A DNA stretch of 64,000 nucleotides from a virus (Duplodnaviria > Caudoviricetes): IMG/VR virus record IMGVR_UViG_3300021514_000002, positions 288,001 to 352,000 of that record; one strand, 5' to 3'. This document shows, one piece after another, positions 4,340-36,227 of the stretch. The translations under genes and the position numbers were made by a program. How positions within the stretch are numbered: position 1 is the stretch's first letter; each line of letters opens with the position of its first letter. The notes beneath the pieces are model-generated. The model ran no database searches. It had not been told where the DNA came from and was given only the letters and a program-made list of their open reading frames with translations.

Positions 4340-5389
4340 ATGGGTAATAGCACCCCCGCATTAAGTAAAGGTGCGTACTTTACTGACTTGCATGTTGGGG
4401 CTAAATCCAATTCACAACAACATAACGAAGATTGTGTCAATTATATTGATTGGTTCTGTGCTAATGTAAAAGCAGACCCTGAAATTGATTACATTTGTTT
4501 TGTAGGTGATTGGCACGAAGTCCGAAGCGCGATTAACGTGTTTACATTAAAATATTCATATGAAATTGCTACAAAAATCAATGACTTAGATCTGCCTGTA
4601 TATTTTATCATTGGCAACCATGATCTATATCATAGAAATAATAGGGACATTTATTCAGTTGTCCCTTTTAATGAGTTTAAAAATTTCAATATAATTGATA
4701 AACCTACGGTAATTGAGAATATTGGGGATGGTGTATTAATGTGCCCATTCCTGTTCCATGAAGAATATACCAAATTATCACAATATAATAAGATTCCTTT
4801 CTGGGTAGGACATTTTGAATTCAAGGGGTTTGTTGTTACTGGTTACAATATTACAATGAAAACCGGCCCAGACCATACGGACTTCGATGGACCAGAAAAT
4901 ATTATATCTGGTCATTTTCACAAAAGACAAACTAGCGGGAACGTAACCTATATTGGGAATACCTTTCCGACTAACTTCAGTGACGCTGGGGATGTTGAAC
5001 GCGGCATGATGATTTTTAACCATACTAATAAAGATATGAAGTTTCTTGATTGGGAAGATTGTCCCAAATATATAACAGGTACCTTATCCGATATAATAGC
5101 TGAAAAAATCAAATTGTATCCAAATTCACGAGTTCGTTGTGTAGCTGATATTCCCATAACATACGAGGAAAGTTTAGAATTGAAGAAAACTTTCATAGAG
5201 GGTTATGATTTGCGGGAATTTGCTATTGAGGAATCTAGTGAAATCCAAGAAGCATTGACCGAGACAGAAACAACCATCAACGAAAGAAATCTTGGTACTG
5301 TTGATGAAATGGTAGTAGAAATGTTAAACGACATCGAATCGGAACATATCGACAATGATTTACTTTCCGAAATCTACCAAAACTTATAA
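4340..5389 (+). CDS. gp47: Recombination nuclease gp47 (Mre11/SbcD-like)
   Basis: Metallophosphoesterase motifs TDLHVG, GDW, GNHD, GHFE, SGHFH; adjacent to gp46. Confidence 0.93.
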   Translation: MGNSTPALSKGAYFTDLHVGAKSNSQQHNEDCVNYIDWFCANVKADPEIDYICFVGDWHEVRSAINVFTLKYSYEIATKINDLDLPVYFIIGNHDLYHRNNRDIYSVVPFNEFKNFNIIDKPTVIENIGDGVLMCPFLFHEEYTKLSQYNKIPFWVGHFEFKGFVVTGYNITMKTGPDHTDFDGPENIISGHFHKRQTSGNVTYIGNTFPTNFSDAGDVERGMMIFNHTNKDMKFLDWEDCPKYITGTLSDIIAEKIKLYPNSRVRCVADIPITYEESLELKKTFIEGYDLREFAIEESSEIQEALTETETTINERNLGTVDEMVVEMLNDIESEHIDNDLLSEIYQNL

Positions 5390-5415: not shown

Positions 5416-7707
5416 ATGATTAAATTTAAACAACTTTCAATTAAAAATTTTCTGTCATATGGCGAAGTTCCAACAATAATAGACCTTGACGATACGGGCA
5501 CTACGTTGATTGTAGGGGAAGATCTGGATAATACTGCATCTGGAACTGGGGCTAATGGCGTCGGGAAAACTGTATGGATAAATGCGCTTATCTACGGATT
5601 GTATGGCAAACCAATATCTAATATATCATTAGATAATCTCGTCAATAATATTAATAAGAAGAACATGGAAGTTATTATTGAATTTGAAAAAGATGGAAAT
5701 GTGTGTACTGTTAAACGTGCGCGCAAGATAACGGGTTCAGGTAACTATGCTAAAGTCTTTATCCGTCCATCTGGTACAGATTTAGATGAAAATAAGCACG
5801 ACAAGACACCAGATAGTATAAGCAATATAAATGATTTTATTGCCGAGCTACTTGGGATTCCCTATGAACTATTTGTTCGCATTGTTGCTTTTGCGGCAAC
5901 CCATACACCGTTCCTCGATTTACCTGTTAGACATGCGTCACAAGCAAATCAATCTGATATTATGGAAGAACTATTTAGACTAACACAATTGTCTGTTAAA
6001 GCAGAATCCCTTAAAGTTGAAATTAGGGATACTAAACAATCGTTAGAAATTAAAACTTTACATAATGAACATCTCGAAAAAGAACATGAGCGCCATAATA
6101 AACAATTACTATCTGCAAGAAATCGCGTAGATGATTGGGAAGATGACCGCGATGTTGAAGTGATTGCTCTAAAAAAAGTATTAGAAGATTATGAAGCTGT
6201 TCCTATTGAGGAACAAGAAAAACTATATGAGCGCGTTGCAGAATTAAAGATTACGCTTGCAGAAGAAAAAGAAAAACAACAGACCCTTGAAACGATTATT
6301 ACTGAAATTAGTGCAGAATTCACTGTATCAAAATCAAAGTTAGTGGTTATTACAGAAAGTAAAGAAAGAATTATAAAGTGGAAGGAAGAAAATATAAAGA
6401 AGATTGCTGATTATAAAGCAGCAGCTGAGAAACTTCCTACTGCATATGTACTTAGCGAACAACAAAAATTACATCAGAAACTAGATACTTTAACAGAAAA
6501 TTTAAAAACTCTTACGGCTAAAGAAAAAGAAATAGAAGGCGACATTACACTTACCACTAATGAGTTAAATGAAGCCGAAGATGAATTAGTACATCTAGAA
6601 GAAGCAAAATGTCCATATTGTTTACAACAACTTGAAGATGCTGCAGCGAAAATTAATAAATGTAAAGATGATATAAAAATTAAAGAACAAGAGTTGTTTA
6701 ATTTTTCAGTGCTTTTAGATGTTGTTCAAAAAAACATAGTAGTTACATCTAAGGATGTTAAAACAGTTTCCGATGATATTGATTATTCTATAAACGAAAT
6801 AAACAATTATGAATATACGCGCAATGAATACGTTGTAAAATTACAAGAGTTGTTTAATGAACAGTGTCCACATGGTAATGCTAAAACTGTAGGTGATATG
6901 ATTTCAGTTATTTCCGAAATGACCGAAGAAAATATGCACTTAAAAGAAACCCTTGCAAAAGAAGCCGACGGGTTAGTTGCGATTGACGATGTAATTGAAT
7001 TAATCAATAATGAATTAATAGAATGTGAAAGCAACATTACAATTTCATCCTTGAATGAATTATACGAAATAAAGAACAAAATTAAACAACAAAAAGATAA
7101 GATTAAAGAATTAAAATCTGCTATTAATCCATATCTTGCACCATTAAATGAGTTACTAGATATTAAACTGGAACCTATTGATATGGATGCAATTAATAAA
7201 CTAACTAACTTGATAACACATCAGAATTATTTAGTTAAATTATTAACCAAGAAAGATAGTTTCATTCGTAAAACATTGTTGACTAAAAACCTTGTATTTT
7301 TAAATCAACGATTAAAAGAATATCTATTAGCTTTGGGATTGCCACACAAGGTAGAATTTACCCATGAAATGACTGCAAACATATCACAATTTGGTAGAGA
7401 ATTGGATTTTGGGAACTTGTCTAGTGGACAAAAAGCGCGCGTAAATCTCGCGTTGTCTTTCTCGTTTAGGGACGTATTACAAAAATCACACGATAGTATT
7501 AATGTTTGTATGCTTGATGAAGTTCTTGACGTTGGCCTTGATTCGGTTGGCGTACAAAACGCAGCACGAATGCTGAAGCGCAAGGCACGTGATGAAGATT
7601 TGGCACTGTTCATTATTTCACACAGGGACGAAGTTAGTAATATATTCGACCGAAGAATGACAGTCCAAATGGAAAAAGGTTTCAGTTCTGTGAAGGTAGA
7701 AGAATAA
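5416..7707 (+). CDS. gp46: Recombination ATPase gp46 (Rad50/SbcC-like)
   Basis: Walker A NGVGKT, coiled coil with CPYC zinc hook, signature LSSGQ, Walker B MLDEVLD, H-loop ISH. Confidence 0.95.
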   Translation: MIKFKQLSIKNFLSYGEVPTIIDLDDTGTTLIVGEDLDNTASGTGANGVGKTVWINALIYGLYGKPISNISLDNLVNNINKKNMEVIIEFEKDGNVCTVKRARKITGSGNYAKVFIRPSGTDLDENKHDKTPDSISNINDFIAELLGIPYELFVRIVAFAATHTPFLDLPVRHASQANQSDIMEELFRLTQLSVKAESLKVEIRDTKQSLEIKTLHNEHLEKEHERHNKQLLSARNRVDDWEDDRDVEVIALKKVLEDYEAVPIEEQEKLYERVAELKITLAEEKEKQQTLETIITEISAEFTVSKSKLVVITESKERIIKWKEENIKKIADYKAAAEKLPTAYVLSEQQKLHQKLDTLTENLKTLTAKEKEIEGDITLTTNELNEAEDELVHLEEAKCPYCLQQLEDAAAKINKCKDDIKIKEQELFNFSVLLDVVQKNIVVTSKDVKTVSDDIDYSINEINNYEYTRNEYVVKLQELFNEQCPHGNAKTVGDMISVISEMTEENMHLKETLAKEADGLVAIDDVIELINNELIECESNITISSLNELYEIKNKIKQQKDKIKELKSAINPYLAPLNELLDIKLEPIDMDAINKLTNLITHQNYLVKLLTKKDSFIRKTLLTKNLVFLNQRLKEYLLALGLPHKVEFTHEMTANISQFGRELDFGNLSSGQKARVNLALSFSFRDVLQKSHDSINVCMLDEVLDVGLDSVGVQNAARMLKRKARDEDLALFIISHRDEVSNIFDRRMTVQMEKGFSSVKVEE

Positions 7708-7886
7708 TGGGAAACAACAACGAATCATATCGCATTGTGCAGGATTTTCAACTTATCAGTGTATCGCTTGTTGCTAATCCTGAAAAAGGGATGGAAATAC
7801 AAACTCTAATGGAACGCGACGTTAATATTCTCATAGATAAATACGATAGAACTATGAAATTATTGGAGATGTATATAAATGAATAA
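7707..7886 (+). CDS. 59 aa protein resembling a prohead-protease fragment, with YDRTMKLL motif (absent from ORF track)
   Basis: ATG overlaps the gp46 stop (TAATG) and the stop overlaps the next start. MGNNNESYRIVQDFQLISVSLVANPEKG...DKYDRTMKLLEMYINE. Confidence 0.7.
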   Translation: MGNNNESYRIVQDFQLISVSLVANPEKGMEIQTLMERDVNILIDKYDRTMKLLEMYINE

Positions 7887-8244
7887 CGTAGAAGCTGTTG
7901 ATTATATCAACCGTGCAAAACAAGCAATGACAAATGTAATGGAATTTTTTCTATTTGAACCGATAAATGATAATTTAATGGCACGAATGGAAACCGCCCT
8001 TGTTGGCGAATTAATTACCGAAATTGATATTGATTTTGGTGTTGATGTTAAATATGAAGACAATGATGTATGTGTGGTAGTTTCACTCGACGGAATTAAA
8101 GTTGATAAAGGAATTCTAGAAATTGAAGGACGTTATACAAACTGTCCAGCATTATTTGCGGAATTGGAAACGTTAGACGCTGCTATTGAGTTTACAGATA
8201 GTGAAAGTAATATCGCATTTGACAGGGCTATGGAAATAGTTTAA
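7879..8244 (+). CDS. Small protein resembling tail-sheath C-terminal domain, ends AFDRAMEIV
   Basis: YINR..FLFEP..LVGELI versus YIKR..FVFEP..FLGDLI in this phage's gp18; GGAG RBS. Confidence 0.7.
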   Translation: MNNVEAVDYINRAKQAMTNVMEFFLFEPINDNLMARMETALVGELITEIDIDFGVDVKYEDNDVCVVVSLDGIKVDKGILEIEGRYTNCPALFAELETLDAAIEFTDSESNIAFDRAMEIV

Positions 8245-8573
8245 TGAAATATTGGAGAGATTCAGAAGCCGAATATCTTGAATATGAAGAAGCTGGACGA
8301 ATACTACCGTATAAACATCCTGCTGCTATAGCAGCGTCTGAGGACATTCGTACAGAAGTAGAGATAATTCCTAATACTATGGAATTTCGTGACTACCTTG
8401 ATCCAACAACATTCGTTACTAGTTTACGGAAATGTGTTAAGGTAGAACGTAGGTTGTTTCGTTTTGGCAAAGACATGCTTGAACAAATTGCATGGATTCC
8501 ATTAGATATAATGGGTTACAAAGTACCACCTAATAAATTTGCGGCCTTTGAGCGCGCAATGGAGATTATATAA
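8244..8573 (+). CDS. Hypothetical protein, ends AFERAMEII
   Basis: 109 aa, TAATG-coupled to both neighbours; weak similarity to the gp23 C-terminus (DPTTF vs NPTTF). Confidence 0.7.
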   Translation: MKYWRDSEAEYLEYEEAGRILPYKHPAAIAASEDIRTEVEIIPNTMEFRDYLDPTTFVTSLRKCVKVERRLFRFGKDMLEQIAWIPLDIMGYKVPPNKFAAFERAMEII

Positions 8574-8869
8574 TGAACAATGAAATAGAAATTTCAATGT
8601 TAGATTTTACGAATATGTCGAGTGAAGATACGCATGTATTAATTAACGTGAATATTGGGGCAATGCCTCCTAAACGAGCGTACGATTATCTTGTCAATAT
8701 CAAAACAACACTTCCACTATGTAAGATGTTGAATGAAAGAGGTATCACCTATTCCCTGATTGGTTGTAGATCTGATGGGGCTGGTAATATTGTAACAAGT
8801 ATCGAATCTAATGATAATATTGTTGATACAGAAAATACAAAGTTTGATGACGCAATGAATATTGTTTAA
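8573..8869 (+). CDS. Small protein resembling a portal (gp20) fragment, ends KFDDAMNIV
   Basis: INVNIGAMPPKRAYDYLVNIK versus IDVGKMPPQRVKQYLEGIK, and RSDGAG versus RPDGRG, in this phage's portal. Confidence 0.75.
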   Translation: MNNEIEISMLDFTNMSSEDTHVLINVNIGAMPPKRAYDYLVNIKTTLPLCKMLNERGITYSLIGCRSDGAGNIVTSIESNDNIVDTENTKFDDAMNIV

Positions 8870-15764: not shown

Positions 15765-15843
15765 TTAAACGCAAGGTTTGCTAAAAAATAGTCCTCATAA
15801 ATATAATTATAATAGTAAACATACACTAAGAAGAATTAATTTT

Positions 15844-17472
15844 ATGACAGCAAAATGGACGGGATATTTTAAGGTTGTTTCACCGCAACCCTCTACAACC
15901 AAAATGACAGATAGCCAGGAAATGGCTGACTCTGGCGCGTACAACAACTATACATGGTATCAACGATTAGTACAAGGTTCCGCATCACGTATGACGCGGT
16001 ATCGTGAATATGATCTCATGGATAATGACATTGAAGTCGCGCGTGCACTTGATACTATCGCAGAAGAAATGACAGGGAATAATCCTAAAACAAAAGAACC
16101 TCTTATTCTTGATATTATGACAGAAGATGAAGACAATGTTGAAGGCATTGCGGTTCTTACGTTGAAGGCAGCATTACGACGTTGGGCACATTTGCACAAT
16201 TTTCCAAATCGTTTATATGCCATTGCACGCTTAACAATAAAATATGGCGATGTTTTTTTCCGCAAAGGAAAAAAACTAAATGATAAGTGGCAATTCATTC
16301 ATCCTAAAAATATAATTGCAGCCGTTGTTGATGAACATGATGCAACTAAAGTTTTGGCATGGCAGATGAAAAAAGATATAGAAAAACCAAGAACTGGTGG
16401 TTATGCTATGCCAATCGGCGCTAAAGAAGATTCTGCACATGAAAGTGAAATTGTTTCAACTAATGAACTTATTCGCTTTTCGTTAAACGATGATATGTCA
16501 GATACCCAACCATTTGGTGAATCTGTTCTACGTCCAGTTTATCGTTCACACAAACAAAAAGAATTATTGGAAGATGCTGTTATTATCTATCGTGTACAAC
16601 GTGCACCTGAGCGTCGTGTATTCTATATTGATGTTGGTAAGATGCCTCCACAGCGTGTTAAACAATACCTTGAAGGTATTAAGAATGAAATTAAACAAAA
16701 GAAAATCCCAACACAAAATGGTGGACAATCAGAAGTAGATTCCGTTTATAACCCACATTCAATGAGTGAAGATTTCTTTTTCGCGTCACGACCAGATGGT
16801 CGTGGTTCACGCGTTGAAACATTACCAGGTGGTCAAGGTCTTGGTGAATTATCCGATCTTGAATACTTCCAACGTAAAGTCTGGCGTGGTTTGAAAGTTC
16901 CAGTCTCTTATATGATAGAACAACAAGAAGGTGGCCAAGTCTGGAATGATGGTAAAGTCGGCATCGCATATATTCAGGAATTGCGTTTTTCATTATACGT
17001 AGAACGACTACAAGGTTATCTTGAAAGAACATTAGATGCTGAATTTAAAGAATTCTTACGCAAGACGAATATCCGCATTGATGAATCAATGTATCGTATT
17101 ATGCTTCCAGAACCTTCTAACTTTGGTAAGTACAAACAACTTGAATTAGATAGTCAGTTACTTAGTGCATATACAACTCCAGATGGAATTAGTTATATGT
17201 CTAAACGATTTGCAATGAAACGCTATTTACAAATGTCTGATGAAGAAATGATTACCAATGAACGGTTAAAGCGCGAAGAATTAGGTATTGATGCTGATAG
17301 TACAGATCCTGCCGACTTACAAGCAATCTATGGTGCACCAGAAGAAGGTGCCATGGGCGGCATGACAGGTGGCCTAGGTGGTGGATTTGGTGGTGCAGAA
17401 TTAGGCATGAGCGGTGAACCCGCAACCCCAGAAAGTGGCACTCCACCCGCTGCTGCAACGCCAACAACATAA
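15844..17472 (+). CDS. gp20: Portal vertex protein gp20
   Basis: LEDAVIIYRVQRAPERRVFYIDVGKMPP and EDFFF..R.DGRGSRVETLPGG; probable start MTAKW at 15844. Confidence 0.97.
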   Translation: MTAKWTGYFKVVSPQPSTTKMTDSQEMADSGAYNNYTWYQRLVQGSASRMTRYREYDLMDNDIEVARALDTIAEEMTGNNPKTKEPLILDIMTEDEDNVEGIAVLTLKAALRRWAHLHNFPNRLYAIARLTIKYGDVFFRKGKKLNDKWQFIHPKNIIAAVVDEHDATKVLAWQMKKDIEKPRTGGYAMPIGAKEDSAHESEIVSTNELIRFSLNDDMSDTQPFGESVLRPVYRSHKQKELLEDAVIIYRVQRAPERRVFYIDVGKMPPQRVKQYLEGIKNEIKQKKIPTQNGGQSEVDSVYNPHSMSEDFFFASRPDGRGSRVETLPGGQGLGELSDLEYFQRKVWRGLKVPVSYMIEQQEGGQVWNDGKVGIAYIQELRFSLYVERLQGYLERTLDAEFKEFLRKTNIRIDESMYRIMLPEPSNFGKYKQLELDSQLLSAYTTPDGISYMSKRFAMKRYLQMSDEEMITNERLKREELGIDADSTDPADLQAIYGAPEEGAMGGMTGGLGGGFGGAELGMSGEPATPESGTPPAAATPTT

Positions 17473-18339: not shown

Positions 18340-18978
18340 ATGTCACAACAATTATTATTTGAAGAACTAACACCATCGCAGGCAGGTTTGATTAAAGAAT
18401 CATCTCATGATGGTAAAGACACATGGTTAAATGGTATTTTCATGCAAGGTGGTATAAAGAACCGTAATGGGCGTCTTTATCCTATGAATGAAATCCAAGC
18501 CGCAGTATCTTCTGCACAGATGCGAATTAAAGAATCAAATGGTATATTTGGTGAACTTGATCATCCGCAAACACTAACAATTAATCTTGATCGCATTTCG
18601 CATGTTATCACTGAATTAGCAGTTAATGGTAATAATGCAGTCGGTAAGGCTAAATTACTTAATACCCCTATGGGCAATATTGCAAAAGAACTTGCTAACT
18701 CTGGTGTTGCGTTAGGTGTATCTTCGCGTGGTGCAGGTCAAGTGAATGAAAATGGTGGTGTTCAAGGATTCAACTTTGTTACTGTTGATATTGTTGCACA
18801 ACCTTCTGCACCGAATGCTTATCCAACTACGGTCATTGAATCATTGGACATTGCAAAGAATGGTCATAATATTCTTGATCTTTCCGAAGCAGTTCGTTAC
18901 GACCCAGCAGCACAAAAATATTTCAAAAAAGAAATTGAAAAGTGGTTAAATACTGGACTTTTTGCAAAATGCAAATAA
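18340..18978 (+). CDS. gp21: Prohead core protease gp21
   Basis: GIFMQ..IKNRNGRLYP, GELDHP, LGVSSRG, VDIVAQPSAPNAY. Confidence 0.96.
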   Translation: MSQQLLFEELTPSQAGLIKESSHDGKDTWLNGIFMQGGIKNRNGRLYPMNEIQAAVSSAQMRIKESNGIFGELDHPQTLTINLDRISHVITELAVNGNNAVGKAKLLNTPMGNIAKELANSGVALGVSSRGAGQVNENGGVQGFNFVTVDIVAQPSAPNAYPTTVIESLDIAKNGHNILDLSEAVRYDPAAQKYFKKEIEKWLNTGLFAKCK

Positions 18979-19158: not shown

Positions 19159-20139
19159 ATGGAAGAACTACTGCAAAAACTATTGGAAGCAGAAGTGCTA
19201 TCTGAAGATACTAAGAAAGAATTAGAAAGCGCTTTCCAACAAAAGTTGGACGAAGCTATAACTGCTGCCAAAGATGATGCAGCTGCCGATGTCCGTGCCG
19301 AGCTTACTGAACAGTGGGTTGTAGAACGTGATCAGCTTATAGAAGCCGTCGATTCCAAAGTAACAGAATTTCTTGGAAAAGAAGTTGAAGAATTAAAAGA
19401 AGATATCGAACGCTTTCGTGATCTCGAAGCTGAATATGCTGAAAAATTAGTTGAATCTAAAGCAGCTATGTCAGATGAGTTGAAAGATGATTTGATGGAA
19501 CTTGTAGAAAAAGTTGATGCGTTCTTAGAAATCCGCCTTGGTGCTGAAATCGAAGAATTACGTGAAGATCTTGAAAGCGTTCGTAAGAATGATTTTGGTC
19601 GTCGTGTATTTGAAGCATTTTCTGATGAGTTCATGGTTAACTACTCTGATGAAGAATCAGCAGAAGTATCATTACGTGAAACTCAAGAACGTCTTCGTGA
19701 CGCAGAAGACGCATTAGTGGAATCTGAATCCAAGCGTGCTGAAACAGATCGTACTATCGCAATGGAAACAATTTTATCATCACTTGCTGGACGCCAGCGC
19801 GAAGTGATGGAAGCAATCCTCCGAAACGTTGACACGGATCATTTGGAAGAAGGCTATAAGACCTTTATTGGTCGCGTAATCCGTGAAACAGATAACTCAG
19901 AGAAGGAAGGTTCAGTACTAGCTGAGAGTGAAGAAAAAGATGACGACAATGACGACAACGATGATAAGAAATCTAAGAAAGCTAAGTCTAAAGAAGGTAA
20001 AGACGAAGACGATAAGAAAGAAAAGATCGAAGAAGGCACAAAAGTCACAGGCAATACCGAAGAAATGATTATTGAGACTGCAGATCCTGCAAATAAAGCT
20101 CAACTTGATTATCTTCGTAAACTCGCAGGCATTAACTAA
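19159..20139 (+). CDS. gp22: Prohead scaffold protein gp22
   Basis: Acidic coiled coil between gp21 and gp23; ends YLRKLAGIN. Confidence 0.88.
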   Translation: MEELLQKLLEAEVLSEDTKKELESAFQQKLDEAITAAKDDAAADVRAELTEQWVVERDQLIEAVDSKVTEFLGKEVEELKEDIERFRDLEAEYAEKLVESKAAMSDELKDDLMELVEKVDAFLEIRLGAEIEELREDLESVRKNDFGRRVFEAFSDEFMVNYSDEESAEVSLRETQERLRDAEDALVESESKRAETDRTIAMETILSSLAGRQREVMEAILRNVDTDHLEEGYKTFIGRVIRETDNSEKEGSVLAESEEKDDDNDDNDDKKSKKAKSKEGKDEDDKKEKIEEGTKVTGNTEEMIIETADPANKAQLDYLRKLAGIN

Positions 20140-20169: not shown

Positions 20170-21651
20170 ATGAACGAATTATTCGAAAACTGGGCAGAAA
20201 CTAAAGCAGCATTGCTTGAAGGTCTTGACGCTCAAAAACAAAAGGTCGTAGCACCGCTGTTAGAAAATCAGAAAAATCATTTGATTGCTGAATCTGCAGC
20301 CGCTGGTTCTACTGCCGCACACGATATCGCTGGTTTCAGAAAGATTTTAATCCCAATGATCCGACGTATCATTCCAGGTACAATTGCTACTGAGCTTGTT
20401 GGTGTTCAACCAATGACTGGTCCAGTTGGACTTGTATACACTTTACGTTACCGTTATACTGAAAGCGTATCTGCTACTTCACATGCTAACCCATTTGGTC
20501 TTCCAGGTGCAATTACAGCTGGTGATGAAGTATTTGGTAACAGTTCACCAATCCGTCAATGGTATTCTGGCGCAGCTGGTCAACCTGTAGGTTCACCGTT
20601 AGTTGCTTCTGATGCACAGCCACAAGCACCTGGTGCCGGCGCTATCGCAGGTACAGACGCAGATGGAACAGTTGGTGCTGAAGCAATTGATACTGCATTG
20701 GCTTCTGGTCAAGCATGGCCTTCAAGCTTAGGTGCTTCTGCTGGTAACATTGGTTACGTTGACGGTCTTGGCCGTACAGTAGCTGGTTCAGTTTGGGGTG
20801 GTTCTGGTAGCTTTATTGAAGGTTCTGGTGGTCGTAAGATGACTATGGACGTTGTTAGTCAATCAGTTGAAGCTGGTTCACGTAAGTTACAAGCTGGTTG
20901 GACTATTGAAGCTATGCAAGATCTTAATGCACAGCACGGTTTAGATCTTGAATCTGAAATGACACAGGCATTGTCTGCTGAAATCGTTCAAGAAATTGAT
21001 CAAGAAATCATTACTGATCTTCTTGCCCTTGCAGGTACAGTAGATACATTTGATGGCGCTGGCGCTGGACAGTACAGCTTTAACAGTACTTCTGGTAACT
21101 ATGCACCTGCATATGTTGGTGATCGTCTTGCTAACCTTGGTGTTATCATCAATCGTGTTGCAAATGAAATCGCACGTAAGACTCGTCGTGGCGCTGGCAA
21201 CTTTATCGTTGTTTCTCCACTTATCGTTTCTGTTCTTCAGTCTGCTGCTAAGTCAGTATTCGCACCAGCTGTTGAAGGTTCATTCAAAGGTCCTAACAAC
21301 TCTATGTTAGTTGGTACTTTAAACGGGACTATCAAAGTATATAGTTACCTTTGGAACCAAGCAGGTGCAAACCTTGATCTTGGTGGTGGTGCTTCACCGC
21401 TTGAAAGTGCAAATGATACAATCCTTGTTGGTTATAAAGGTGGAAACGGAGAAACTGATACTGGTTACTTCTACTGCCCTTACATTCCATTGATGTCTTC
21501 TGGTGTTGTTGTTAATCCAACTACATTCCAACCAGTTGTTAGTTTAATGACTCGCTACGGTAAGTCTGTTTTCACTAACACTGAAACATCCTTGGGCAAT
21601 TCTGCAGATTATTACGGGAAAATAAATGTTGCAAATCTTGACCTTGTATAA
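20170..21651 (+). CDS. gp23: Major capsid protein gp23
   Basis: LLENQ..LIAE cleavage region, VGVQPMTGPVGL, SRKLQAGWTIEAMQDL, EIVQEID, YCPYIPL..FQP...TRYG. Confidence 0.98.
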   Translation: MNELFENWAETKAALLEGLDAQKQKVVAPLLENQKNHLIAESAAAGSTAAHDIAGFRKILIPMIRRIIPGTIATELVGVQPMTGPVGLVYTLRYRYTESVSATSHANPFGLPGAITAGDEVFGNSSPIRQWYSGAAGQPVGSPLVASDAQPQAPGAGAIAGTDADGTVGAEAIDTALASGQAWPSSLGASAGNIGYVDGLGRTVAGSVWGGSGSFIEGSGGRKMTMDVVSQSVEAGSRKLQAGWTIEAMQDLNAQHGLDLESEMTQALSAEIVQEIDQEIITDLLALAGTVDTFDGAGAGQYSFNSTSGNYAPAYVGDRLANLGVIINRVANEIARKTRRGAGNFIVVSPLIVSVLQSAAKSVFAPAVEGSFKGPNNSMLVGTLNGTIKVYSYLWNQAGANLDLGGGASPLESANDTILVGYKGGNGETDTGYFYCPYIPLMSSGVVVNPTTFQPVVSLMTRYGKSVFTNTETSLGNSADYYGKINVANLDLV

Positions 21652-34578: not shown

Positions 34579-35019
34579 ATGACTACTGACACTACTGAAG
34601 TTGAAATGATTATTGAACATCCATTAGAAGAAATATTTGATATTGAATCAGGTACGACGCTAATACCTCGTACGGAGAAAACTACAGAATTAGTAGCGGG
34701 AGAAGAATATGATGATAAAGATAAAGAAATTGAAGATCAGTTTCAAGAAGTATATGACCATGCCCTTTCCGCATTCGAAGATCAAGTAGCAGAAGCAGAA
34801 GTTATTGAAGGAAAATATAAAGCACGCAACATGGAAGTTGGTGTTCAGTTATTAAATACCGCCCTTGCCGCAGCAAAAGAAAAATCATCACTGAAACAAC
34901 ATAAAGATAAGACAGCACTCGCCAAAGGAAAACTTACAGGGAAAACGGTCAACCACAATAACCTCATTATAGCTGACCGCAACGAGTTATTAAAAACGTT
35001 GATGAATAAAAAAGATTAA
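34579..35019 (+). CDS. gp16: Terminase small subunit gp16 (putative)
   Basis: Helical; AR.MEV..QLLNT, NHNNLII..R.ELLK; upstream of the large terminase. Confidence 0.7.
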   Translation: MTTDTTEVEMIIEHPLEEIFDIESGTTLIPRTEKTTELVAGEEYDDKDKEIEDQFQEVYDHALSAFEDQVAEAEVIEGKYKARNMEVGVQLLNTALAAAKEKSSLKQHKDKTALAKGKLTGKTVNHNNLIIADRNELLKTLMNKKD

Positions 35020-36137
35020 TCTAATATTTTCATCGCAGATTCAAAAGCATCAGATATTAGTTCATCAACTTCAGTCATACTTTCAATATTATCCGATTCT
35101 TTTTTTTCTTCAATCTTAAATGTTATATCTTTTAGTTTCGGTAAGTTATCCAATGTTAATTCGTAATAATAGTTACATGGTTCTTTTGTGATTGTAGTTG
35201 TCGCACCATCTTCCGTAGTAATTGTTTCTGTCGGCTGATTAACGTATTTACCGTAGCGTGACATAAATGTTGCAAAAGGTGCAAAAGTATCAGGATCTAC
35301 TACAATCTGAGCCATTGTTGGAATATATGGTGCGTAAATGTAACCAGTATCAGTTTCACCATTACCGCCTTTATATCCAATAATAGTTTTACCATGTTCA
35401 AGTCCGAAATCACAATATACTTTTATAGAACCATACAATGTTCCAATGTATTCGATGTAGCCATAATCGTATTCATTAAGTGCTTGTGGTATAAAGTTGT
35501 TACTATTTTTTAGGATTTCTGCAACGGCTTCAGACGCGATTACAAAATTACCACAACCTCGACGTGATTTCCTTGCAATTGAATTTGCGCATGAACTTAT
35601 AGATATCCCAATCTTCACAATTTTATTTTGATCAATATCCTTACCATCCCCTACGATTTTTTCAACGTCAAGTGACGCTTTATGTGCAATCCCAGAAATA
35701 TCATTTCTAATTTCTTCGTATATTTCTTTGGCGATTTCTGTACAAGGATTTACTTTATCATCAAATACCCCTGCGTTTATATCTTCTAAGGCTTCAAGTG
35801 ATAAACGTGTTTCTAATTTTCGCGCCCCTGCTTCTACTGCTTGCGAATTTATAGTTAGACTAATTCTGGTACCTACGTTGTTTTCTTCGTCTATAGGTTC
35901 TTCGTCTGTTATTTCATATTCTAATGAAAATATTAATCCAACAGGCGCTGTCATTGGTTGCACCCCAACAAAATGTCTGACAGCTAGACTATCAATCACT
36001 TCTGATGTAATATTTCTAATCATGTCTGCGCTTGAACTTGCACCCATGCCCGCAACGCTTTCAAGATAATCGTCTGTATTTTTAAGCAATGTATCCTTAA
36101 TTATGTCTTTTGTCTGCTCTGTATCTACTACGTTCAT
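35016..36137 (-). CDS. Second gp23-like capsid protein paralogue, ends DAFESAMKILD
   Basis: VGVQPMT.PVGL, VEAG.RKL, IARK.RRG.GNF and GYKGGNGETDTGY are shared with gp23; start moved to ATG 36137 (GAGG RBS). Confidence 0.88.
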   Translation of the reverse strand: MNVVDTEQTKDIIKDTLLKNTDDYLESVAGMGASSSADMIRNITSEVIDSLAVRHFVGVQPMTAPVGLIFSLEYEITDEEPIDEENNVGTRISLTINSQAVEAGARKLETRLSLEALEDINAGVFDDKVNPCTEIAKEIYEEIRNDISGIAHKASLDVEKIVGDGKDIDQNKIVKIGISISSCANSIARKSRRGCGNFVIASEAVAEILKNSNNFIPQALNEYDYGYIEYIGTLYGSIKVYCDFGLEHGKTIIGYKGGNGETDTGYIYAPYIPTMAQIVVDPDTFAPFATFMSRYGKYVNQPTETITTEDGATTTITKEPCNYYYELTLDNLPKLKDITFKIEEKKESDNIESMTEVDELISDAFESAMKILD

Positions 36138-36153
36138 AATTCTATCCTCTTTC

Positions 36154-36227
36154 TCTTTATTTACTACTTTAAAAATTAGACATCCCAATAGATTGGTAAC
36201 CCAAAAATGTGTGGTAGTAAATAAAGA
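36154..36227. promoter_or_regulatory. Divergent promoter pair forming a perfect 14 bp inverted repeat
   Basis: GTAGTAAATAAAGA on both strands (36154-36167 minus, 36214-36227 plus), each with a late-promoter-like TAAATA core. Confidence 0.65.

Follow-up and report, generated by a model that had tools for sequence, protein, structure and literature searches.

A putative non-catalytic miniature of the prohead protease gp21 encoded behind gp46 in an uncultured deep-sea jumbo phage

Introduction

What a phage may gain from a gene of 59 codons whose product resembles a piece of its own prohead protease, gp21, is the question raised by a small open reading frame (ORF) located immediately after gp46 in a stretch of 64,000 nucleotides (nt), hereafter the window, which corresponds to bases 288001-352000 of the 363,531-bp IMG/VR virus record IMGVR_UViG_3300021514_000002. 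The record represents a jumbo phage with a T4-type core, and the public runs containing it are metagenomes from hydrothermal vents, cold seeps and marine sediment; the phage itself is uncultured and of deep-sea origin. Among cultured phages, RsoM2USA, XacN1 and PA5oct come closest, with gp21 identities of 51-55%. On the grounds of sequence comparison, the 59-amino acid (aa) product, named mini-gp21 here, is firmly regarded as a non-catalytic mini-protein derived from gp21 and as a member of a clade-specific set of proteins carrying a common C-terminal tail, and it is held with the same firmness that several proteins of this tailed set are built from fragments of virion proteins.

A conserved coding gene coupled to gp46

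The gene and its upstream partner are organized as follows:

5416..7707, plus strand: gp46 (Rad50/SbcC-like; Pfam AAA_23 and SMC_N; synteny in relatives), upstream partner of the 59-aa ORF
7707..7886, stop included, plus strand: mini-gp21, 59 aa

The ATG of the 59-aa ORF takes its A from the TAA stop of gp46, thus forming a TAATG junction, and a Shine-Dalgarno-like AAGG occurs at 7693-7696, 11-14 nt 5' of this ATG. At its 3' end the ORF overlaps the next one (start 7879) by 8 nt, and the three genes that follow are joined to one another by ATGA overlaps. Judged from this layout, the 59-aa ORF is translationally coupled to gp46.

The initial annotation had considered conservation in relatives as a test of this overlapping ORF, and the ORF withstands it. 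A word search recovered a 56-aa protein, 82% identical, on a Logan contig and in the same position after a 763-aa gp46. A scan of loci encoding gp46 relatives yielded a 48-aa homologue with an identical TAATG junction in locus L002, and homologues merged into a 308-aa ORF in L003 and L004. A profile search among 1.84 billion representatives gave 14 matches at E<=1e-3, 13 of which are true family members of 30-307 aa; the remaining one, P0016, a 623-aa repeat protein, was rejected as a false match of the family profile. The family thus comprises at least 13 relatives, which are syntenic after gp46 in every genomic context that is readable. Compared with L002, the ratio of non-synonymous to synonymous substitution rates (dN/dS) is 0.36 over 45 codons, with a dS of 0.93, and a cold-seep contig covers the whole ORF at 94.7% identity without any gap. 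Because of these syntenic relatives, the conserved junction, the dN/dS value and the gap-free contig, the 59-aa ORF is, as far as comparative evidence goes, a real and conserved coding gene. The small ORFs following gp46 in XacN1 and RAS14 are unrelated to it, as is the translation of gp45.2, the small gene after gene 46 of T4.

Likeness to gp21

The segments of both proteins to which the comparisons refer are listed below:

18340..18978, plus strand: gp21 prohead protease (Pfam Peptidase_S77 6.7e-26; matches PDB 5jbl)
18421-18498 and 18754-18810: gp21 residues 28-53 and 139-157, the stretches copied in the mini-gp21 family
7731..7781, plus strand: mini-gp21 residues 9-25 (RIVQDFQLISVSLVANP), copy of the gp21 β-strand segment holding the third catalytic residue, Asp in gp21 and Ser here
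7788..7799, plus strand: residues 28-31 (GMEI), present in 11 of 13 family members, with no gp21 counterpart in the alignments
7800..7835, plus strand: linker, residues 32-43, site of a second gp21 motif in five relatives, absent from the window copy
7836..7868, plus strand: residues 44-54 (DKYDRTMKLLE), common C-terminal tail motif

The likeness initially noticed consists of 7 identities out of 15, in register, between residues 11-25 of the 59-aa ORF and residues 141-155 of gp21 (window about 18760-18804). BLASTP of the ORF against gp21 gave no alignment, neither Pfam (E<=1) nor PHROGs gave a match with the ORF, and BLASTP with a word size of 2 retrieved the 15-mer as a weak match (E 1.9). 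These failures show only that the likeness lies below the reach of single-sequence methods. A gp21 hidden Markov model (HMM), run on all 2085 six-frame ORFs of at least 40 aa in the genome, ranked gp21 first, a 167-aa ORF second (E 3.4e-7) and the 59-aa ORF third (E 0.064, 9.8 bits), the latter being the best non-protease match genome-wide. Positions 133-157 of this HMM align with residues 2-27 of the ORF, in a register repeated in 7 relatives, and the 9.8 bits compare with 7.4 bits for the best of 300 shuffles. Reciprocally, an HMM of the family places gp21 first among the non-self ORFs of the genome (E 0.042) and matches it in two separate places, at residues 28-53 and 140-156; in the independent genome of T4, it ranks T4 gp21 first of 830 ORFs. 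Similarly, hhalign of a 4-member family alignment with 20 gp21 sequences associates residues 9-27 with gp21 139-157 (P 8e-4), and the positions of the strand segment that are conserved across the family are those conserved in gp21 (F-x-hydrophobic-x-x-V-x-hydrophobic-V-x-x-P). A language-model neighbour search, taken as a lead only, had 47 clusters of the Peptidase_S77 set among its 100 nearest (best score 0.90), and retrieved an S78 cluster as well. The 167-aa ORF, a dead paralogue of gp21 described below, was rejected as the direct source of the 59-aa ORF, since the family HMM ranks it 28th and gp21 2nd.

Five relatives (P0006, P0007, P0012, P0015 and P0017) possess, between the strand segment and the tail, an additional segment of the IFMQA.K..H.GRIY type, which reproduces the nearly invariant gp21 motif IFMQ..KNRNGRxYP and is equivalent to gp21 33-48 (hhalign P 2e-4). 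When compared with the gp21 HMM, P0017 obtains 15.3 bits (E 1.3e-3) from two domains, which fall at gp21 140-157 and 28-51, whereas the highest score among 300 shuffles was 4.8 bits. The two segments occur in these relatives in the reverse of their order in gp21, and the protein is therefore stitched together instead of being a simple truncation. Owing to the profile matches, the shuffle controls, the reciprocal ranks and this second motif in relatives, the likeness of the 59-aa ORF to gp21 is, at the level of sequence, beyond chance. Both the resemblance to the last strands of gp21 and its significance against a gp21 profile, the other test set beforehand, are thus upheld.

A fragment devoid of protease features

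As anticipated from the first inspection, the 59-aa ORF contains neither the GELDHP (His) nor the GVSSRG (Ser) motif of gp21, and the catalytic Asp position (VDIV) is occupied by Ser. Its score remains below the Pfam PF03420 gathering score for Peptidase S77 membership, gp21 itself reaching 91 bits, and its 59 residues, of which residues 2-27 align, fall short of the complete S77 fold of about 180 residues. What it displays is the local, reciprocal and in-register likeness above shuffles expected of a gp21-derived fragment. Since the catalytic residues are absent, the 59-aa product should be considered no protease and predicted to be unable to cleave.

Hypervariability of the gp21-like segment

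The identities between the proteins of the window and those of L002 are the following:

mini-gp21: 52%
121-aa protein: 39%
109-aa protein: 47%
98-aa protein: 44%
gp46: 71%
RuvC-like protein: 72%
helicase: 77%
gp22: 82%
gp21: 91%

The proteins of the cassette that begins with mini-gp21 thus share 39-52% identity versus 71-91% for the flanking genes. At a closer distance, P0006 originates from a genome almost identical to that of the window, with an identical tail, and the X5 contig, from a marine-metagenome run, has the same length (1126 nt) and arrangement of genes as that of P0006. The flanks of the window and of X5 are 95% and 92% identical, and 154 unalignable bases of X5 stand in place of 7711-7828, a difference of +36 nt which keeps the frame (12 codons longer). 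Between the window copy and P0006, the gp21-like segment shows 40% protein identity and the tail 18 identical residues out of 18. It follows from these values that the hypervariable part is the gp21-like segment itself. The 59-aa gene is accordingly best described, from these comparisons, as fast-evolving and accessory.

The common C-terminal tail and its carriers

The genes of the cassette that follow mini-gp21, the T4-type genes with which their products are compared and a tailed capsid paralogue occupy the following positions:

7879..8244, plus strand: 121-aa tailed protein, merged with mini-gp21 in P0007/L003, P0011 and P0013
8244..8573, plus strand: 109-aa tailed protein, third gene of the cassette
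8573..8869, plus strand: 98-aa tailed protein with a portal (gp20) fragment (BLASTP best match gp20 284-315, E 0.012)
15778-17472: portal gp20, T4-type core gene
19159-20139: scaffold gp22
20170-21651: gp23
35016..36188, minus strand: gp24-like capsid paralogue with the C-terminal tail FESAMKILD (Pfam Gp23 2.7e-53)

The tag-like YDRTMKLL pointed out by the initial annotation turns out to be one instance of a tail motif, [FY][DEN]x[AST]Mxx[ILV], characterized by a 1-4-5-8 hydrophobic pattern and an invariant small Ala upon inspection of the sequences. The ORFs of the genome contain 12 copies of its core, [FY][DEN]x[AST]M, all of them at most 6 residues from the C-terminus (12/12); since C-terminal windows of this size account for about 14% of ORF residues, the distribution is far from chance. 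The more stringent form [FY][DEN]x[AST]Mx[ILV][ILV], at most 6 residues from the C-terminus, also describes YDRTMKLL, which lies 6 residues from the end. The carriers comprise the four genes after gp46, six small ORFs elsewhere, a 435-aa protein and the gp24-like capsid paralogue, and tailed small genes after gp46 also occur in L002, L013, L015, L016 and L024. In the mini-gp21 subfamily, the tails always end with [LI]LE, which fits the L/I-x-E cleavage logo of T4-type gp21 (PMC9026906).

Several of these carriers contain recognizable pieces of virion or assembly proteins, e.g., gp21 in the 59-aa protein, portal in the 98-aa protein, whose portal motif DVGKMPPQRV is exact in relatives, and sheath, capsid and portal in the 435-aa protein. 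The latter combines a sheath C-terminal domain (E 2e-21 versus the phage's own sheath), a portal piece (8e-16), a capsid piece (2e-3) and an ISLGVSSRG stretch. No source virion protein was recovered for the 121-aa family with its HMM, tail sheath included, and word-2 BLASTP, nor for the 109-aa protein with phmmer and word-2 BLASTP, and the sheath and gp23 readings previously advanced for these two proteins are thus left unconfirmed by these searches. The best weak match of the 121-aa family is a 278-aa gene after gp23 (E 0.16). In the fusions of mini-gp21 with the 121-aa protein the internal tail decays, the LLE and the terminal tail being retained. At window position 7875, a low-depth (3.3) marine-sediment contig is one base short; this loss, which may be an assembly error, would put the 59-aa ORF in frame with the 121-aa gene and yield the same fusion as in P0011, P0013 and L003.

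Two proposals concerning the tail were not upheld. In a position-specific scoring matrix (PSSM) built from 23 tails, the C-terminus of T4 gp21 ranks only 9th of 565 ORF ends, through a window that is not the LAEAMKKAL stretch, which lends no support to a derivation from the gp21 C-terminal helix (T4 ...LAEAMKKAL); the same PSSM detected no protein with this tail among the T4 ORF ends. Similarly, the general tail does not correspond to a gp21 cleavage site (A-M-E), the residue after Met being variable.

The 167-aa gp21 paralogue, located outside the window at genome 64255-64758 on the minus strand (L046:2259-2759:-), possesses a tail-like, degenerate C-terminus (IEETMNIVEIDE). It has FGNYPPL where gp21 has GELDHP, its tblastn matches are solely prohead proteases at 25-28% identity, and it is, by these features, a diverged and catalytically dead paralogue; a search for its relatives found none. 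It adjoins two tailed Cys-rich small genes at 65412-65905. The gp24-like protein, on the strand opposite to the cassette, carries its tail on an extension of about 50 aa, and its gene is flanked by a tail-chaperone-like gene on one side and by that of the terminase on the other. In gp22, residues about 200-225 contain a conserved GR.REVMEAIL.NV plus RTIAMETIL, tail-like and shifted by one residue; an imitation of the scaffold by the tail is conceivable. Finally, two ORFs of the minus strand, at genome 134575-134775 and 24225-25121, exhibit tail-like N-termini (MKFDEALTLV... and MYKETLDVLME..., respectively) that recall T4's capsid-targeting sequence (CTS), itself N-terminal, and could be due to chance.

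Genomic setting, expression and predicted structure

Upstream of gp46, the block contains another T4-type core gene:

4340-5389: gp47

The sequence TATAAATA is found at 56 sites in the genome; 36 of them precede a gene, that of the sheath among others, by no more than 80 nt, and by this distribution the sequence behaves as a late promoter. The 8-gene block with gp47, gp46 and the cassette contains no TATAAATA site. Because of this lack and of the coupling to gp46, the 59-aa ORF is probably expressed early or in the middle of infection.

AlphaFold models of the 59-aa protein and of a 71-aa relative, both as monomers, have a mean predicted local distance difference test (pLDDT) score of 61-62, and the C-terminal helix alone, at residues 34-57 of the 59-aa protein, is confident. 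A complex prediction of gp21 with the 59-aa protein scored 0.02, a value that counts neither for nor against binding.

Two related loci contain an insertion or a possible one. In L002 (4001-7357), the gp46 match is 3357 nt long versus 2289 nt in the window, which suggests an insertion inside gp46 (intein, intron or mobile gene). In L003 (7663-8331), the tailed-gene cassette is separated from the RuvC-like gene by an inserted 222-aa ORF, whose GIY-YIG-like N-terminus makes it a candidate homing endonuclease.

Possible functions of mini-gp21

The reading tentatively favoured here is that mini-gp21, as a non-catalytic mimic of gp21, acts as a decoy or competitor. It would be produced alongside the recombination proteins gp47 and gp46, probably ahead of the late genes. 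Its N-terminal part would consist of a short segment copied from the gp21 β-strand bearing the third catalytic residue, followed in the longer relatives by the second, non-adjacent gp21 segment (IFMQ..NGRxYP), and its C-terminal part would form an amphipathic helix with the tail motif common to a dozen phage proteins. By mimicking the structure of a part of gp21, it might occupy something that normally recognises gp21, possibly a sensor by which the host detects the protease, or else a partner of gp21 or its oligomerisation site, and thus limit the action of the protease outside the prohead, the common tail linking it to the same partner or assembly as the sibling mimics of portal, sheath and capsid. 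This proposal is preferred because the structural positions of two non-adjacent gp21 segments are conserved, because the segment is hypervariable and the gene belongs to the early-type genes, because the siblings copy other sensed or interacting parts of the virion, and because protease activity is a known immune trigger, the CD-NTases (cGAS/DncV-like nucleotidyltransferases) of the cyclic oligonucleotide-based antiphage signalling system (CBASS) being activated by the protease activity of gp21 (PMC12991175). This hypervariability may be read as an arms-race signature. A wider, and doubtful, extension is that mini-gp21 would be the protease-specific member of an undescribed class of counter-defence or assembly-control proteins, namely small hypervariable chains put together from the best-conserved, non-adjacent stretches of the phage's protease, portal, sheath and capsid and united into one system by a common C-terminal helix, made before the virion proteins and blinding host sensors or suppressing the cytoplasmic protease that triggers CBASS.

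Several observations weigh against the proposed decoy. The gp21-like part alone is predicted to be disordered, so that mimicry of a folded surface is not demonstrated, even if this part may, in the light of the models, fold only on its partner. The window copy is devoid of the second gp21 motif; as the near-identical genome of P0006 carries it, the copy of the window would represent a shorter form without it. The sole tblastn match of the 59-aa ORF among cultured phages (E 3) is due to chance, leaving the gene with no cultured carrier. Finally, the tail also occurs on the gp24-like vertex protein and, degenerate, on the dead gp21 paralogue, which fits a role in the prohead at least as well as that of a cytoplasmic decoy.

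Such a role, the main alternative but one for which the likelihood appears rather low, would make mini-gp21 an accessory or regulator of gp21 inside the prohead. The tail would be a capsid- or core-targeting signal, comparable in function to the CTS of T4 or to the targeting tail at the C-terminus of HK97-type proteases, through which the small proteins would reach the core along with the gp24-like vertex protein and the dead paralogue. Mini-gp21 would then co-assemble with the vertex gp21 pentamers or time their activation, and might be trimmed at LLE and injected like the internal proteins of T4, which are likewise small, hypervariable and targeted by a short peptide. Besides the presence of the tail on a full-length Gp23-family protein and of a tail-like end on the 167-aa inactive paralogue, this explanation accounts for the [LI]LE ends that match the L/I-x-E logo and for the LLE kept at the fusion junctions (PMC9026906). 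In addition, L6 and E8 are invariant in the gp21 of this clade, as at the LIE-9 self-cleavage site of T4; the gp21 pentamers of T4 are believed to occupy the vertices and to become active on the arrival of gp24 (PMC9958956), and T4 requires a shortened gp21 produced from an internal start (PMC9026906). It agrees poorly, however, with a gene coupled to recombination genes in a block without late promoter, and a C-terminal tail would survive cleavage after LLE. Moreover, the variable residue after the conserved Met argues against the general tail being itself a cleavage site, and the tail PSSM singles out neither the C-terminus of T4 gp21 nor any T4 head protein.

It is unlikely that mini-gp21 is simply a subunit of a hetero-oligomer assembled via the tails with the 121-aa and other cassette products, with a function unrelated to gp21 and the strand as a vestige of duplication. 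The repeated fusions to the 121-aa family (P0007/L003, P0011, P0013), identical to that which the base loss at 7875 would create, would be explained in this way, and the loss of the internal tail with retention of the terminal one implies that one C-terminal tail per chain matters, its 1-4-5-8 hydrophobic pattern and invariant Ala being typical of helix-helix packing. Nevertheless, the strand segment is conserved at exactly the positions at which gp21 is, the retention of the second gp21 motif in five members is unexpected for a vestige, and the sibling proteins bear other virion fragments. As to a fortuitous likeness between hydrophobic β-strands, or an untranslated ORF, the blank BLASTP, the borderline single-segment statistics (E 0.064 and 0.042; hhalign probability 24-46%) and the absence of RNA datasets among the public runs containing the record leave some room for it. 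It is nonetheless highly improbable in view of the reciprocal best matches in two genomes, the real scores above all 300 shuffles, the register consistent in 7 relatives with a second independent motif, and the conservation of ORF, junction and frame, including the in-frame length difference of 36 nt. The decoy or competitor thus stays the reading to which we lean, with the reserve expressed above.

Significance and comparison with known systems

Bacterial immune systems recognise phages by conserved virion proteins and can even sense that the prohead protease is active (PMC12991175). In this respect, miniature copies of such conserved segments that evolve fast, bear a common tail and belong to the early-type genes would represent a concrete and testable candidate answer to sensing. 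To our knowledge, the answers of phages to such sensing, beyond point mutation, are largely unknown, and a literature search found no account of a phage that stitches copies of its own virion proteins and gives them a common tail. Should the role of mini-gp21 rather consist of head-assembly control, it would still illustrate how proteins can arise in nature from non-contiguous parts of another one, and how a dozen phage proteins can have one C-terminal address tag in common.

With respect to T4 gp21 (MEROPS S77, PF03420, 5jbl), the strand segment of mini-gp21 corresponds to gp21 139-157 and the IFMQ..GRxY segment of its relatives to gp21 33-48, whereas mini-gp21 differs by its size (59 aa versus 212 aa), by the permuted segments and by the foreign C-terminal tail. 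Non-canonical protease-derived products coexist with the active enzyme in other phages, e.g., T4 gp21s, which starts internally at Met45 and is essential for head assembly (PMC9026906), and gp117 of SPN3US, a diverged protease paralogue lacking the catalytic His (PMC5694885), to which the 167-aa ORF is comparable here. Both, however, keep most of the fold, whereas mini-gp21 keeps one or two segments, belongs to a recombination operon and is far more variable. In the annotation of T4 (NC_000866), the early proteins Srd and Srh are described as postulated decoys of sigma-70 and sigma-32 of the host. Like mini-gp21, they are small early phage proteins whose sole recognisable feature is a likeness to a protein fragment and for which a decoy function has been proposed, but they imitate host proteins and mini-gp21 imitates the phage's own virion-assembly enzyme.

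Inh of T4, a minor head protein of 226 aa, inhibits the gp21 protease. It would be a functional analogue if mini-gp21 restrains gp21, but both proteins are devoid of sequence relation, and Inh is absent from the top matches of the family profile in T4. The CTS of T4 and the targeting region at the C-terminus of prohead proteases (PMC9026906, PMC5694885) similarly associate a short amphipathic peptide, followed by L/I-x-E, with unrelated hypervariable small proteins; however, the CTS is N-terminal and cleaved off, whereas the tail described here is C-terminal, of another sequence, and putative as a targeting signal. By analogy, the nearest precedents of mini-gp21 would thus be T4 gp21s and SPN3US gp117 as gp21-derived products, Srd and Srh as fragment decoys, and the CTS as the analogue of an address peptide.

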